Below the pieces are notes generated by a model. It searched no databases. It saw only the letters and a list, made by a program, of their open reading frames with translations, and was not told the DNA's origin. Positions 4,444 to 62,724 of a stretch of 64,000 bases of DNA are shown piece by piece. Both the position numbers and the translations under genes were made by a program. Each line of letters opens with the position of its first letter. Positions within the stretch are counted from its first letter, which is position 1. The DNA comes from an uncultured Chlamydiales bacterium. Lineage in GTDB: Bacteria > Chlamydiota > Chlamydiia > Chlamydiales > FEN-1388. The stretch spans positions 78,167 to 142,166 of the forward strand of contig CAWAUW010000002.1 in assembly GCA_963785335.1 (NCBI GenBank), read 5' to 3'.

Positions 4444-4636
4444 TGCATAATTCACCACCGAGTCACAGAGCTCACTGAGATATTCGAGAAAACTGAGATT
4501 GCTTACCTAGACAATTAAGCAACTAAGACAGTATTCCGATTTGAAAATCTAGAGATTTAAATACCTAGTTGCCTATTAATTTTTCTCCCTATCTCATACA
4601 CCTCAGTGAGCTCAGTGACTCCGTGGTTATTTATGC
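4444..4636. repeat. long imperfect palindromic intergenic element (~190 bp)
   Basis: Left arm tgcataattcaccaccgagtcacagagctcactgaga pairs with right arm cctcagtgagctcagtgactccgtggttatttatgca. The inverted symmetry continues inward (tgagatattcgagaaaa / ttttctccctatctca). It ends 8 bp from the stop of the 4644 gene. Confidence 0.7.
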
Positions 4637-4643
4637 AACAAGG

Positions 4644-6527
4644 CTATTGTGGATTGCAGCAAACATTTGACCCAGCAACTGCAGGGCTTGCACCCGGCAC
4701 CTGGGAAGGACTTACGTTTGTGCAATTGTGCACGCTATTGTTGCAGCTTGTGTTAAAATATGTTTCTGTAAAACCGGCAAAAGAAAGAGAAATGCCTGAT
4801 CTTGAGCCCCATACGCTGTTACCTGAAAGGTGGTTAGCCTTTTGGTCTGCTACAACAATACCGTTTACAGTGTTGTCATAAACTAAGCAGTTTTCAATAG
4901 AATTTTTGTCGCCACCTGCGCCATTGTCAATAAAAATCCCGCTATCACCATTGAAGATATTGGAATTTTTGACTACGCAGCTGGTTGCATCAAGCAAATA
5001 AACGTTTACATTTGTGCCACCGGATATTTGGCATTCATCTAAAGTGATTTTGTCGCCCACTTCTATATACACCGTTCTTCCGTTGCTGCCTTTTATTATG
5101 CAGTCTCTTGCCACAAGGTTTGTATAAGGAGTGCAAGCAGGCATACCAAAGTGAACAGCTGCTGGTAAATAGCCATTGGGAATATCTAAAGAAGAGGTAT
5201 CTATCAGTAGATTTTCTAAAAGACATCCGCTGCCGCCAAGTATTAAAAATCCATCAAAGCCTTGCACCGCAGTTGTCTGTGTAAAATTTGAATTTTGTAT
5301 AGTAACATCATTTGCATTGTTGGTTGGATCGCAGCTTCCAAGCTGTACAATATTTAAGTTTGAAATAGGGGAGGCTACTGCAATGCAGTGGTCAATTAAA
5401 AGACCCGTTACATTAAGCACCTGAATGGTACCAAGCCAATTGGTAAATGTGTCATTTGTTACTATAATATCTCGTGAATCACCTTCAATATGGAGTCCAA
5501 AAGATGTTCTTGATGGATCAAAAGTCAGATCTGCACCTACAAATGCACAAGAGTCAATAGTTACACCGGTAGAGCCATTAATCCAAATTCCACCCCCATT
5601 TCCAGATCCTGCAAGAGTGGCAGGGCTTGGAAAGTTTATCTGAACGATGCCTTCATGAGCTTCTACGTGTGAGTACTGAACCAGTACATCTGATGAGTTT
5701 TCAATTTCAATACCGCGTGTGGTATTTTTGGTATAAATATTGTTAATGGTTGCCTTTTGTACATTAATCAAATGAACCGCTGCACTTGTAGGGGATCTGA
5801 AAATACTTGCGCCCTGTATAATATCATTTTCTAAGGTAAATTCTGATACATTTAAAGCTACAATACCTTGTGCTGCACTATCAGTTAATGTAAGGCTATG
5901 GTTTTCAAAATTTATACTTACGTTATCGGCGGTAACGGTAATAGCAGTTCCTGGTCCATTGTATGTTAAATCGCGTGTAACGCAGTATTTTCCTGGCGCT
6001 GTAATAATTATAGGCACATTGCTAATTGCCATTTCATTACTGCATGGAAACTGCGTCTCTAAAAACGTAAGAATTTCAGCAAGATCTCTTTTAATATCTA
6101 CACAGCAATTCTTAAATTCAGATTCAATTTTGCCAATATCACCGCAAATATCGCATTGACCAGAACTACCACTATGATTATGCGATACGTGCAAAACATC
6201 ATTTTGATAGGTCGCTGTAAGCAGCTGCTGCATAATTGAATGAGCTTTTCTTACCTTTTCAGGTGATGCATTTATACCAGCGCGAAGCACCATTTCCGTG
6301 CTTTTAAGAGCGGCTTTGATTTTATTTTGAATATCGGGATCTTTTATTTTTCTTCCCAATGTTTTGAGCTTGGCTCTTGATGCCTTAAGACTTGTAAGTG
6401 TTATAGGCGCATCTTTTTCACTTTTGGCTTTTGCACTTTCAGCAGTATCCGCCATGACCGTGGAGGCAGTACATACAGCTAATAGTACTGCTAAGAGGCT
6501 AAAATTTTTTCGAAAGTTGATGTTCAT
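4644..6527 (-). CDS. secreted parallel beta-helix repeat protein with conserved Cys motifs (paralog A, type 1)
   Basis: Signal peptide MNINFRKNFSLLAVLLAVCTASTVMA. Lys-rich helical region, CDICGDIG...CCVDIK...FPC motif, GKYCVT, then repeated NxxI/V beta-helix rungs. C-terminal FNTSCNNSVHNC...AGSNVCCNPQ. Start set at the ATG at 6527 (GAGGAA 6 nt upstream). Confidence 0.8.
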   Translation of the reverse strand: MNINFRKNFSLLAVLLAVCTASTVMADTAESAKAKSEKDAPITLTSLKASRAKLKTLGRKIKDPDIQNKIKAALKSTEMVLRAGINASPEKVRKAHSIMQQLLTATYQNDVLHVSHNHSGSSGQCDICGDIGKIESEFKNCCVDIKRDLAEILTFLETQFPCSNEMAISNVPIIITAPGKYCVTRDLTYNGPGTAITVTADNVSINFENHSLTLTDSAAQGIVALNVSEFTLENDIIQGASIFRSPTSAAVHLINVQKATINNIYTKNTTRGIEIENSSDVLVQYSHVEAHEGIVQINFPSPATLAGSGNGGGIWINGSTGVTIDSCAFVGADLTFDPSRTSFGLHIEGDSRDIIVTNDTFTNWLGTIQVLNVTGLLIDHCIAVASPISNLNIVQLGSCDPTNNANDVTIQNSNFTQTTAVQGFDGFLILGGSGCLLENLLIDTSSLDIPNGYLPAAVHFGMPACTPYTNLVARDCIIKGSNGRTVYIEVGDKITLDECQISGGTNVNVYLLDATSCVVKNSNIFNGDSGIFIDNGAGGDKNSIENCLVYDNTVNGIVVADQKANHLSGNSVWGSRSGISLSFAGFTETYFNTSCNNSVHNCTNVSPSQVPGASPAVAGSNVCCNPQ

Positions 6528-6549
6528 CCGCATTTCCTCAATAAAATTT

Positions 6550-61743: not shown

Positions 61744-61764
61744 CTTACTATACATTATAAATTG

Positions 61765-62253
61765 TTATTTTTTACTAGGGATAAACCGCATGGCAAGAGA
61801 GTTCATACAATATCGCTTGCCAGTGGGAGGAGGGCCGTCATTAAACACATGGCCTAAATGTCCATTGCAGCGGCTGCAGAGCACCTCTACTCGGTTTAAA
61901 AACAGTCCATTATCTTCTTTATACGTTACATTTTCTGGGCATATGGGCTGCCAAAAGCTTGGCCAGCCTGTTCCTGAGTCATATTTGTCATCGGCGTTAA
62001 ATAGAGGTAGCGAACATCCTCGGCAAACATAGATCCCCTTCGCCTTATTTTCATCGTATTCATTATTAAAACAAGATTCCGTCCCTTTTTCACGCATGAT
62101 GGCATATTCTTCAGAAGTAAGTCGCTTTTTCCATTCTGCATCTGTAAGGATAAGTTTCTTTCCGTCAAAACGATACTCTTCTGTACATGTTGCAAAACAA
62201 GTACCAAGTTGCACTAGGACCAAAAATGTAAGAAACCATGTAGTTGTAGTCAT
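61765..62253 (-). CDS. msrB: peptide-methionine (R)-S-oxide reductase MsrB with a signal peptide
   Basis: YVCRGCSLPLFNADDKYDSGTGWPSFWQP...VLCSRCNGHLGHVFNDGPPPTGKRYCMNS, preceded by MTTTTWFLTFLVLVQLGTCFA. Confidence 0.9.
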   Translation of the reverse strand: MTTTTWFLTFLVLVQLGTCFATCTEEYRFDGKKLILTDAEWKKRLTSEEYAIMREKGTESCFNNEYDENKAKGIYVCRGCSLPLFNADDKYDSGTGWPSFWQPICPENVTYKEDNGLFLNRVEVLCSRCNGHLGHVFNDGPPPTGKRYCMNSLAMRFIPSKK

Positions 62254-62311
62254 TTCTTCTACGTAACAGCATTGAAAAACTTTTTCAACTTAAAAGGAAC
62301 TCAAAACAACA

Positions 62312-62724
62312 GGGTCAGAAACAGGATCAGAAACGGGGTCAGCCCAGACCTAGGGTGAAACAAATAGCCTAAAATTGCATAGTTTCCCACCCTAAAATTA
62401 CCTCCAAATTTAGTCCTGTTTTTCCAGCGGCAGCTGGAGTAGTGGGAAGCCCCGCATGCAGCGAGTTAGCGAGCGGAATGTGGGGGATAGGTGATAAATA
62501 AATATGAGCGGCGGCAGCTCGCGAAAGGAGTCTCGCAGCTGCCGCCGCTCATATATTTTATGTACATAACCCCACGTTCCATTATAGGCCTACCGGCCTG
62601 TCATTTCACGCGGGGCTTCCCGCTACTCCAGCTGCAGCTGGAAAAACAGGGCAAAAACTAGAGGGAAAAATATGCCAAGGGTTTATTAGAAAATCTTCGA
62701 TTTGTTTCACCCCACCCCTGACCC
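62312..62724. repeat. composite palindromic element nested at least four layers deep, in a divergent intergenic region
   Basis: Layer 1: gggtcag...cctagggtgaaacaaatagcc / cgatttgtttcaccccacccctgaccc. Layer 2: gtcctgtttttccagcggcagctggagtagtgggaagccccgc / gcggggcttcccgctactccagctgcagctggaaaaacagggc. Layer 3: gcggaatgtgggg / ccccacgttcc. Core: atatgagcggcggcagctcgcga / tctcgcagctgccgccgctcatat. Confidence 0.85.

Follow-up and report, generated by a model that had tools for sequence, protein, structure and literature searches.

Eleven long imperfect palindromes lie between the genes of a 64,000-nucleotide stretch of DNA from an uncultured Chlamydiales bacterium (GenBank assembly GCA_963785335.1, contig CAWAUW010000002.1, positions 78,167 to 142,166), referred to below as the window. 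They measure 180-450 bp, amount to about 5% of the window and occupy 11 of its 20 spacers longer than 200 bp, in the company of leuS, exoD and a set of tandem beta-helix genes. The elements are dispersed repeats. They are probably best regarded as gene-less hairpin repeats, at least six of which (three copies of a family A, two of a family B and the element at 4444-4636) would be miniature relatives of a widespread but little-studied selfish cassette, found in several phyla, that carries a gene for a GxxExxY protein.

A first-pass annotation, made from the letters alone, had proposed these inverted repeats, and an inverted-repeat search of the window recovered all eleven at the positions listed in the table below. 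The arms are 42-95 nt long and 74-96% complementary; the best-paired example, 42531-42625 with 42852-42946, reaches 96% over 95 nt and a second, 11800-11891 with 11919-12010, 79% over 92 nt. When minimum free energies were compared with those of dinucleotide-preserving shuffles, the inverted symmetry was better than in shuffled sequence in 11/11 elements, which lie 8-40 standard deviations under the shuffle energies (z = -8 to -40). In parallel, all 35 window spacers of at least 60 bp were folded. Every spacer holding an element (11/11) gave z <= -5.7, and 22 of the 24 element-free spacers fell between z = +1.3 and -2.5. The other two (z = -4.6 and -6.6) are short and contain ordinary terminator-like hairpins of ~15 bp, as does a third short element-free spacer at z = -2.3. 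The Rfam scan gave no match at the gathering threshold in the window and only two tRNAs in 16 metagenome loci, none of which is located in rRNA; the elements are therefore not known RNAs.

The position of the elements relative to genes differs somewhat from what had been described. Ten of the eleven, rather than nine, lie 3' of a gene, and three of the five convergent spacers in the window carry one. The two largest had been placed in divergent promoter regions, which holds for 11639-12085 only, since 42517-42962 is flanked by two + strand open reading frames (ORFs), 41624-42448 and 43077-46685. A Pfam search of the 49 window ORFs agreed with the statement that no transposase, HUH or integrase domain is present.

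The elements are, as had been remarked, larger and more layered than classical repetitive extragenic palindromic sequences (REPs), bacterial interspersed mosaic elements (BIMEs) or Rickettsia palindromic elements (RPEs). Their concentric layering is clear in 42517-42962, which contains at least four nested arm pairs (I1, I6, I12 and a core), and multiple concentric pairs were also observed in 10439-10821, 11639-12085, 52420-52722 and 62312-62724. Arms made of repeated words were found as claimed, and so were the cited sub-hairpins at 11829-11847 and at 51449-51463 (ggtgctttttgcacc). Branched folding through such sub-hairpins is possible for 32020-32258, 42603-42870, 52420-52722 and 11639-12085; the word-array elements, with no hairpins inside their arms, do not fold in this way.

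The diversity that had been noted is real only in part, as several families have a common terminus (a T-run, (C/G)AMC, then words) and form one superfamily. Family A comprises 19169-19378, 24762-24945 and 42517-42962 (A1 to A3), with the common terminus AAGTGTGAGATTTTTT-(C)AAC followed by CRCAGAG words. Family B comprises 8655-8850 and the core of 10439-10821, both with AACGATA words. An outer layer, D (GGGGTCAG..GGGTGAAACAAATAGCCTAAAA), is common to 10439-10821, 62312-62724 and, partly, 11639-12085; between the first two, the second layer is likewise homologous, and the outer layer of 10439-10821 matches 62343-62374 at 94% over 32 nt. Words of 7-9 nt (CRCAGAG, AACGATA, CACYGAG), arranged in arrays, make up the arms of families A and B and of 4444-4636, and inverted arrays of this kind, usually preceded by a T-run and (C/G)AMC, were found in the three family A copies, the two family B copies and 4444-4636. 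Family C and 52420-52722 have the terminus without clear word arrays, and 32020-32258 lacks such ends.

Table. The eleven palindromic elements of the window, with their setting and the z of their folding energy
Positions	Assignment	Structure	Setting	z
4444-4636	A-related, ORF-less	CACCGAG/CACAGAG/CACTGAG word arms; arms 4437-4489 / 4592-4644, 53 nt, 81% complementary	8 bp 3' of beta-helix gene 4644-6581(-)	-8.3
8655-8850	family B copy 1	AACGATA-word arms; outer-layer remnant CCCGTTCACTTAAT on left side only	13 bp 3' of tyrosine-phosphatase gene	-8.1
10439-10821	composite	outer layer D GGGGTCAG..GTGAAACRAATAGC; second layer CCGCAGCCGTGCAATACCGTTCACTTAAT; family B core 10560-10700		-8.6
11639-12085	composite	D-like outer motifs; ACCCAATGTTG-word arms; inner 92-nt arm pair with sub-hairpins GTCCTGAAAGGAC, CCCATGGTAAAACCGTGGG, GTCGCTTCGCGAC	between divergent genes	-12.3
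19169-19378	family A copy 1 (A1)	terminus AAGTGTGAGATTTTTT-CAAC, then CRCAGAG words	between convergent leuS and pterin-4a-carbinolamine dehydratase (PCD) gene	-20.7
24762-24945	family A copy 2 (A2)		between convergent zf-UBP ORF and exoD	-19.0
32020-32258	compound palindrome, single copy in window	sub-hairpins; arms 32022-32063 / 32212-32253, 93% complementary		-17.3
42517-42962	family A copy 3 (A3)	~270-bp multilayer palindrome 42603-42870 in apical loop		-39.7
51417-51625	family C	terminus TTTTGACCGMAGGTC..GGAGTGC	between convergent genes	-13.3
52420-52722	compound palindrome	three inverted pairs of small hairpins, CAGCCTGTAGGGCTG; CCTAGGGCATCGCCCTGGG; GCAGGCTGCAGGCCTGC; terminus T-run, then AAC		-17.9
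62312-62724	composite	AACAGGGTCAGA words; outer layer D; second layer; GC-rich core palindrome		-18.2

Orthologous spacers were compared in the leuS neighbourhoods of five related genomes with LeuRS (leucyl-tRNA synthetase) identities of 84-86% (L010-L014; L numbers denote fetched loci throughout). Relative to these genomes, whose spacers are short or missing, the elements are insertions. The leuS and PCD genes overlap by ~20 bp without any spacer in L010 and L011, as against a 263-bp spacer with A1 in the window. At the site of 4444-4636, the spacer from RNase R to the beta-helix gene is 53-61 bp in L011 and L014 as against 331 bp in the window. The 3' end of exoD, where the window has a family A copy, overlaps the neighbouring gene in L011, L013 and L014, and in L010 it is followed by a different element with family C termini. 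The relatives also have copies of their own: L012 contains hairpins built from AACGATA or AAGGAC words, and L010 contains palindromes with CGCGAAG words, AAGGAC words or sub-hairpins. The family C element of the window and L010 14476-14690 have common termini of ~35 nt around unrelated interiors. The short or absent spacers of the relatives, together with these copies of their own, rule out in-situ evolution and assembly artefact. The elements recur as families, three in the window with related copies in the relatives and in metagenomes, and assemblies made independently (NCBI, ENA, Logan, JGI) contain the same families.

A 24-nt pattern of family B was searched against JGI metagenome contigs, and 55 loci were returned. 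In 16 of them a small GxxExxY ORF adjoins the array. The NCBIfam model TIGR04256 ('GxxExxY protein') identified the ORFs of L056 (E = 4e-40) and L023 (E = 5e-31), and the remaining ones were assigned by jackhmmer. Inverted arrays stand on both sides of the ORF in 13 of these 16 loci; the last word of the left array, AACGATG, supplies the ATG of the ORF (MKTEKELPHSELTG...), and the right array starts a few bases past the stop codon. In at least 19 other loci the same TCAACG...CGTTGA termini delimit a hairpin without an ORF, and L042 is an internal-deletion intermediate in which both ends of the ORF are kept. ORF-less derivatives arise by internal deletion. The partner implied by the first-pass annotation, a RAYT (REP-associated tyrosine transposase) or other HUH protein, found no support; the partner gene found is of the GxxExxY PD-(D/E)XK-like type and lies inside the same word-array arms.

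The family B copies of the window are close to these loci. The exact 24-nt pattern is shared with the arms around GxxExxY ORFs and is contained in 8655-8850, and similarity to ORF-bracketing arms reaches 90% over 53-58 nt (L037, L076). L028, L041 and L065 match the window copies at 77-90% over 85-165 nt, outer layer included; for 8655-8850 the values are 86% over 127 nt with the hairpin L041 and 88% over 85 nt with L065. The same element still has the word 'AACGATGAAA', which is the home of the ORF start codon in full-length copies. Word number differs between copies, and slippage would explain these changes; in L076 (9735-10005) there are ~30 words on the left arm and ~11 on the right, and L022 (about 2000-2400) is a long pure word array. 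AACGATA words can reach 30 or more tandem copies on one arm and form minisatellite-like arrays of 270 bp (L022, L076).

Similar arms surround other GxxExxY genes. A second GxxExxY ORF, in L069, has ACCACAGAG/CACCGAG/CACTGAG words on both sides. In Bacteroides finegoldii and Bernardetia, CACAGAGG and CGCAGAGG words follow a T-run and AAC or CACC; CGCGAAG words, the same word as in an L010 palindrome, bracket the gene of Sphingomonas parapaucimobilis, and the gene of Gemmatirosa is directly followed by a complete CGCAGAGG hairpin. A search for homologues of the L069 protein led to a Chlamydiales-labelled metagenome-assembled genome (MAG; L084) and to a 572-kb contig (L082), and A-type arms bracket the gene in both. 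The left arm of 4444-4636 is identical to the GxxExxY-bracketing arm of L084 at 25 of 28 positions. Local alignment of family A with the arms of L069, L071 and L072 gave z = 3.3-15, and the observed score was attained by 0-1 of 300 shuffles; A3 gave z = 10-12 with the L082 arms. These z values come from mononucleotide shuffles and are overstated for repetitive sequence.

That the arms belong to the element is shown by one pair of occupied and empty sites. In S. paeninsulae, Methylobacterium, Rhizobium and Shinella, fabD is followed directly by fabG, and in S. parapaucimobilis a GxxExxY cassette of ~430 bp is found inside this ~30-bp spacer. The empty site lacks the arms, which hence arrived with the insert. 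The inserted unit consists of arms and GxxExxY ORF alone, both at fabD-fabG and between radA and the adjacent gene, and no transposase lies in the vicinity. Integron attC cassettes were considered and rejected, as repeats stand on both sides of the ORF and the cassettes are solitary between housekeeping genes, with no intI nearby.

The family A terminus was also found in other phyla. A scan of the genome contigs of species representatives, a set without the source genome, gave nine single matches, in six of which the terminus was confirmed on inspection. The terminus GTGAGATTTTTT..AAC with words forms ORF-less hairpins in Chryseobacterium, Chitinophaga, a Vulcanimicrobiota MAG and an unclassified MAG, and a permuted arrangement is present in Planctomycetales and Cloacimonadota. 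In the Planctomycetales MAG (L001 6890-7200), the motif TGAGATTTTTTTAA is the loop between inverted CGCAAAG/CGCGAAG words, with several such hairpins in tandem, whereas in family A of the window the motif is the outer terminus.

All GxxExxY proteins found contain PF13366 (PDDEXK_3), and the full-length gene encodes ~125-140 amino acids. In an alignment of 27 B-type proteins, D72, E82 and K84 are invariant (a D...ExK motif) in addition to the GxxExxY motif, and an AlphaFold model matched PD-(D/E)XK folds only, namely Cas4 SSO0001, alkaline exonuclease and Hjc resolvases. A search of the PDB with a GxxExxY protein sequence returned no match, and no relatives were found in a search of viral contigs. 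A profile search (E <= 1e-3) gave 18,760 cluster representatives at 50% identity, spread over many phyla. Matches to the B-type protein lie almost entirely on contigs of 1-2 kb, a distribution in keeping with repeats at which assemblies break. Many family members are 250-280 amino acids long with two GxxExxY domains (e.g. P0243, P0249, P0254); these are tandem cassettes joined by read-through into a single ORF, or else true fusions. A 2012 survey of the PD-(D/E)XK superfamily listed PF13366 as of unknown function with multiple horizontal transfers (PMC3424549). In the literature searched for chlamydial palindromic repeats or miniature inverted-repeat transposable elements (MITEs), GxxExxY and PDDEXK_3, no description of these elements was found, and GxxExxY was rare and never mentioned in connection with mobility.

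Whole multilayer composites are dispersed as units. A ~330-bp composite was observed at seven loci with unrelated flanks in the JGI data set Ga0207072, with layers in the order CGCAAAG words, CAGGAT words and AACGATA words; the copies differ in word number, and some no longer have all of the layers. Four layers were counted in L055 and three in L026, with B words innermost in every case. In the window, A3 equals A2 plus the palindrome held in its apical loop. Central insertions would be those that leave the resident element able to propagate; a true preference for hairpin tips may be the alternative.

The two arms of A3 are 98% alike and both carry an (AG)8.5 expansion that A1 and A2 lack, a pattern that requires either that one arm was recently derived from the other or that templated correction took place between the two. 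Concerted evolution of arms as a general rule was considered and rejected, as A3 alone shows high arm identity. The arms of A1, A2, B1 and B2 are 81-86% alike, compared with 78-88% between copies. Being no more alike than the copies are, they indicate that older copies decay without compensatory maintenance, which argues against a strongly selected RNA or DNA structure.

These observations suggest the following scenario. The full-length cassette would consist of a GxxExxY gene of ~125-140 codons between inverted arrays of 7-9-nt words, often after a T-run and (C/G)AMC. Copies would spread by a DNA-level step that needs a nuclease specific for structure or for words, the most plausible candidate being the GxxExxY protein acting in trans from a copy elsewhere in the genome. 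A new copy landing in the centre of a resident element would leave both resident arms intact and the composite still propagable, and palindromes within palindromes could build up in this way. Old copies would then decay neutrally, with occasional templated arm-to-arm correction as may be the case in A3, and the build-up just 3' of genes would reflect tolerated insertion sites rather than a host function. More tentatively, and with a probability that we place somewhat below even, GxxExxY (PF13366) proteins may be the mobility or homing nucleases of hitherto unrecognised hairpin-ended selfish elements, which would insert between genes and into one another's centres and whose gene-less derivatives would build multilayer palindromes.

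Several observations weigh against this scenario. Cutting or moving of DNA by GxxExxY proteins is a proposal; the AlphaFold2 model is mediocre (pLDDT 67) and its fold matches are weak (E >= 4e-3). No GxxExxY ORF or remnant was detected in the window or in the leuS loci of the five relatives (jackhmmer on six-frame ORFs; tblastn, E <= 50), so that a trans source in the source genome is assumed rather than seen. The architecture is not uniform in the family: three of eight plasmid-borne GxxExxY genes, from Prevotella, Persicobacter and a fusobacterium (L075, L080, L081), are flanked by direct repeats of ~50 nt that are partly word-like, and one, from Treponema, has a short plain terminal inverted repeat (TIR). 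Neither a target-site duplication nor a fixed target motif was found at the A, B and metagenomic copies inspected; around many copies the flanking sequence is inverted instead of direct, and many B copies have small palindromes next to them (GCCACNAGCTNGTGGC, TAGCTACAATTGTAACTA). In several loci, GxxExxY cassettes lie beside IS630 or IS66 transposase genes. Finally, no link to an ORF-bearing element was found for 32020-32258, 51417-51625, 52420-52722, 42603-42870 and the cores of 11639-12085 and 62312-62724. The only family-level hints for these are a T-run with an AAC or GACC terminus and matches of 76-79% to L026 and L055, i.e. 76% over 86 nt between the core of 62312-62724 and L026 1340-1423, and 77-79% over 64-66 nt between the inner part of 52420-52722 and L055 2129-2191. 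For 32020-32258 no relative was present among the fetched loci; an (AT)14 microsatellite (31989-32016) directly adjoins its left end.

The insertion sequence (IS) genes just mentioned bring in ordinary MITEs as another explanation, in which the elements would be deletion derivatives of insertion sequences moved by a DDE transposase (IS630/IS66) encoded elsewhere, with GxxExxY as a passenger or neighbour. Multi-copy, ORF-less elements of 180-450 bp with terminal inverted repeats are indeed what MITEs look like, and B-type cassettes lie immediately 3' of IS630 transposase ORFs in L056 (1305-2270), L018 and L035, and next to IS66 in L077 (383-2376). We nevertheless regard this as unlikely. IS630 generates TA duplications, and no target-site duplication was seen at any copy inspected. 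The arms, tandem word arrays unlike the inverted repeats of insertion sequences, hug the GxxExxY ORF to the point that its ATG falls within the last word, and arms and ORF alone were found inserted. The parent element that was found has a GxxExxY gene and no recognised transposase, IS630 or IS66 genes adjoining it in some loci, where the cassettes may have inserted inside insertion sequences or hitch-hiked on them as passengers. A REP- or REPIN-like origin with maintenance by a RAYT (HUH Y1), in which GTAG sub-hairpins would be REP units and the long palindromes doublets or higher-order clusters, is very unlikely. Hairpins of the CCTGTAGGG type do occur as inverted pairs in the inner layers of 42603-42870 and 52420-52722 and at L012 16329-16382, and GTAG-tagged REPs have been reported in the PVC (Planctomycetes-Verrucomicrobia-Chlamydiae) superphylum (PMC3733652). 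However, the Pfam search detected no RAYT or Y1 transposase domain in the window, the word-array elements (A, B and 4444-4636) have neither a GTAG or CGTC head nor an internal hairpin, and their partner gene is PD-(D/E)XK-like rather than HUH.

A host function is a further explanation, whether or not the elements arrived as mobile DNA: they might have evolved or been kept as terminators for both directions, as stabilisers of mRNA 3' ends or as sites of RNase III processing, comparable to the intervening sequences (IVSs) of 23S rRNA. This would agree with the preference for the 3' side of genes and for convergent spacers, with B-type arms that read A-run, stem and T-run in both directions, and with UUCG- or GNRA-like loops on sub-hairpins. 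The Coxiella IVS, a hairpin-bracketed selfish element with a small ORF in the 23S rRNA precursor (PMC4990558), offers a parallel. Yet the orthologous gene pairs of the relatives lack the elements, and ordinary short terminator hairpins exist elsewhere in the window. In older copies the two arms differ from each other as much as the copies do, and compensatory maintenance is not apparent. The stem of A-type elements is preceded by a T-run and followed by an A-run, the reverse of a terminator, and a terminator and promoter consensus scan showed no enrichment. Intrinsic terminators were rejected on this orientation, on the scan and on the size of the elements, and host function in general appears highly improbable. 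As to assembly or amplification artefacts such as chimeric inverted duplications, the 1-nt frameshift in leuS described below does point to some assembly error; but the palindromes are imperfect, the families are 60-92% identical between copies, and their recurrence in independently produced assemblies leaves this explanation with a practically negligible probability.

If GxxExxY proteins are indeed mobility nucleases, a large orphan protein family (TIGR04256/PF13366) would gain a testable role, and the CACAGAG-, CGCAAAG- and AACGATA-type word arrays and long nested intergenic palindromes of many genomes would be explained. Such elements would break metagenome assemblies, in line with hundreds of cluster representatives on contigs of 1-2 kb, and their recognition would be useful for annotation, as they would give rise to spurious N-terminal extensions on annotated proteins. 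Environmental chlamydiae would then have a second kind of repeat dynamics besides IS elements.

The window has a G+C content of 39% and no tRNA gene. Its LeuRS fragment has its best matches, at 84-86% identity, in MAG and Logan contigs, followed at 66-73% by proteins labelled Chlamydiales, Chlamydiia or Parachlamydiaceae, and two mislabelled Verrucomicrobia. A cyanobacterial origin (STRR, short tandemly repeated repetitive sequences, or HIP1) was rejected, as no HIP1 site GCGATCGC is present in the window and the LeuRS relatives are Chlamydiales. The gene content, with tandem beta-helix paralogues, BTB-LRR proteins, Ser/Thr kinases, tyrosine phosphatases, zf-UBP and many large Pfam-less ORFs, fits an amoeba-associated chlamydia. 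An apparent 1-nt insertion near 18245 (cttGcatc as against CTT CAT in relatives) divides leuS (16497-19137) into two overlapping ORFs; it is probably a sequencing or assembly error rather than a sign of a pseudogene, as the gene is essential. Four paralogous genes for right-handed beta-helix (NosD-like) proteins of ~640 amino acids form two tandem pairs, at 4644-8520 and 12664-16487. They are 65-72% identical in DNA blocks, and the relatives hold two to five at the same place, so that copy number is fluid.

ORFs with eukaryote-like domains were observed at 8863-10377, 24473-24733, 28399-29484, 35622-37451, 37521-39008 and 46692-47933; the set comprises two tyrosine phosphatases (one fused to a histidine phosphatase), zf-UBP, two Ser/Thr kinases and a BTB-LRR protein, all candidate host-directed effectors. 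Toxin-antitoxin genes lie at 34088-35344 and 39021-39485 (a MazF/PemK toxin, a Phd/YefM-PIN pair and a solitary PIN), and upstream of Phd the 17-mer AAAGCCCGGCCCCTTTT occurs twice in tandem with a degenerate third copy (34466-34520). The short ORFs at 33077-33712, one of which matches GMC oxidoreductases in the C-terminal part only, are probably a decayed gene. At 57568-58797 (-), a 409-amino-acid protein has a flagellar hook FlgE/F/G D1 domain (PF22692, E = 1e-17), with no other flagellar gene nearby.

Among known systems, bacterial MITEs (Correia/NEMIS, Rickettsia RPE, ERIC, Nezha, the Cardinium MITE) resemble the present elements in being ORF-less, multi-copy sequences of 100-450 bp with TIRs and long hairpins, and in being internal-deletion derivatives of an ORF-bearing element. 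Unlike them, the present elements showed no target-site duplication or DDE parent, and they have tandem word-array ends and a systematically central nesting. The present elements may also be likened to the STRR heptamer repeats and nested small dispersed repeats of cyanobacteria, reportedly described by Elhai and colleagues in 2008, with short tandem intergenic words and small repeats inserted in one another; we know of no link of STRR repeats to GxxExxY genes. The Foldback (FB) transposons of Drosophila have long TIRs of short tandem repeats, the number of which varies between copies and between arms. By analogy, the variable-number, short-repeat inverted arms would correspond, but FB transposons are eukaryotic and unrelated in sequence and enzymology.

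The intervening sequences of Leptospira 23S rRNA carry small ORFs. Such inserts also occur in Coxiella (PMC4990558). Like the present elements, these are small selfish insertions, with inverted ends that form a long stem, an enclosed ORF of ~100-140 amino acids of obscure role and a location at the tip of a pre-existing helix. They differ in lying in rRNA and in encoding an S23p four-helix bundle, whereas the present elements are intergenic with a GxxExxY ORF or none. The REP/BIME/REPIN-RAYT systems of Enterobacteria and Pseudomonas are alike in consisting of intergenic gene-less hairpin repeats that accumulate 3' of genes, in forming inverted doublets and higher-order clusters, and in being associated with a small gene of nuclease or transposase type that has the repeat on either side. 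REPs are nevertheless only 20-40 bp long, with a GTAG or CGTC head and a HUH Y1 transposase as partner, in contrast to word-array arms of 40-270 bp, elements of 180-450 bp, up to four layers and a GxxExxY partner. By analogy, the elements of the window thus appear closest in logic to REPIN-RAYT and to the ORF-bearing rRNA intervening sequences, with a different partner gene and with ends made of word arrays.

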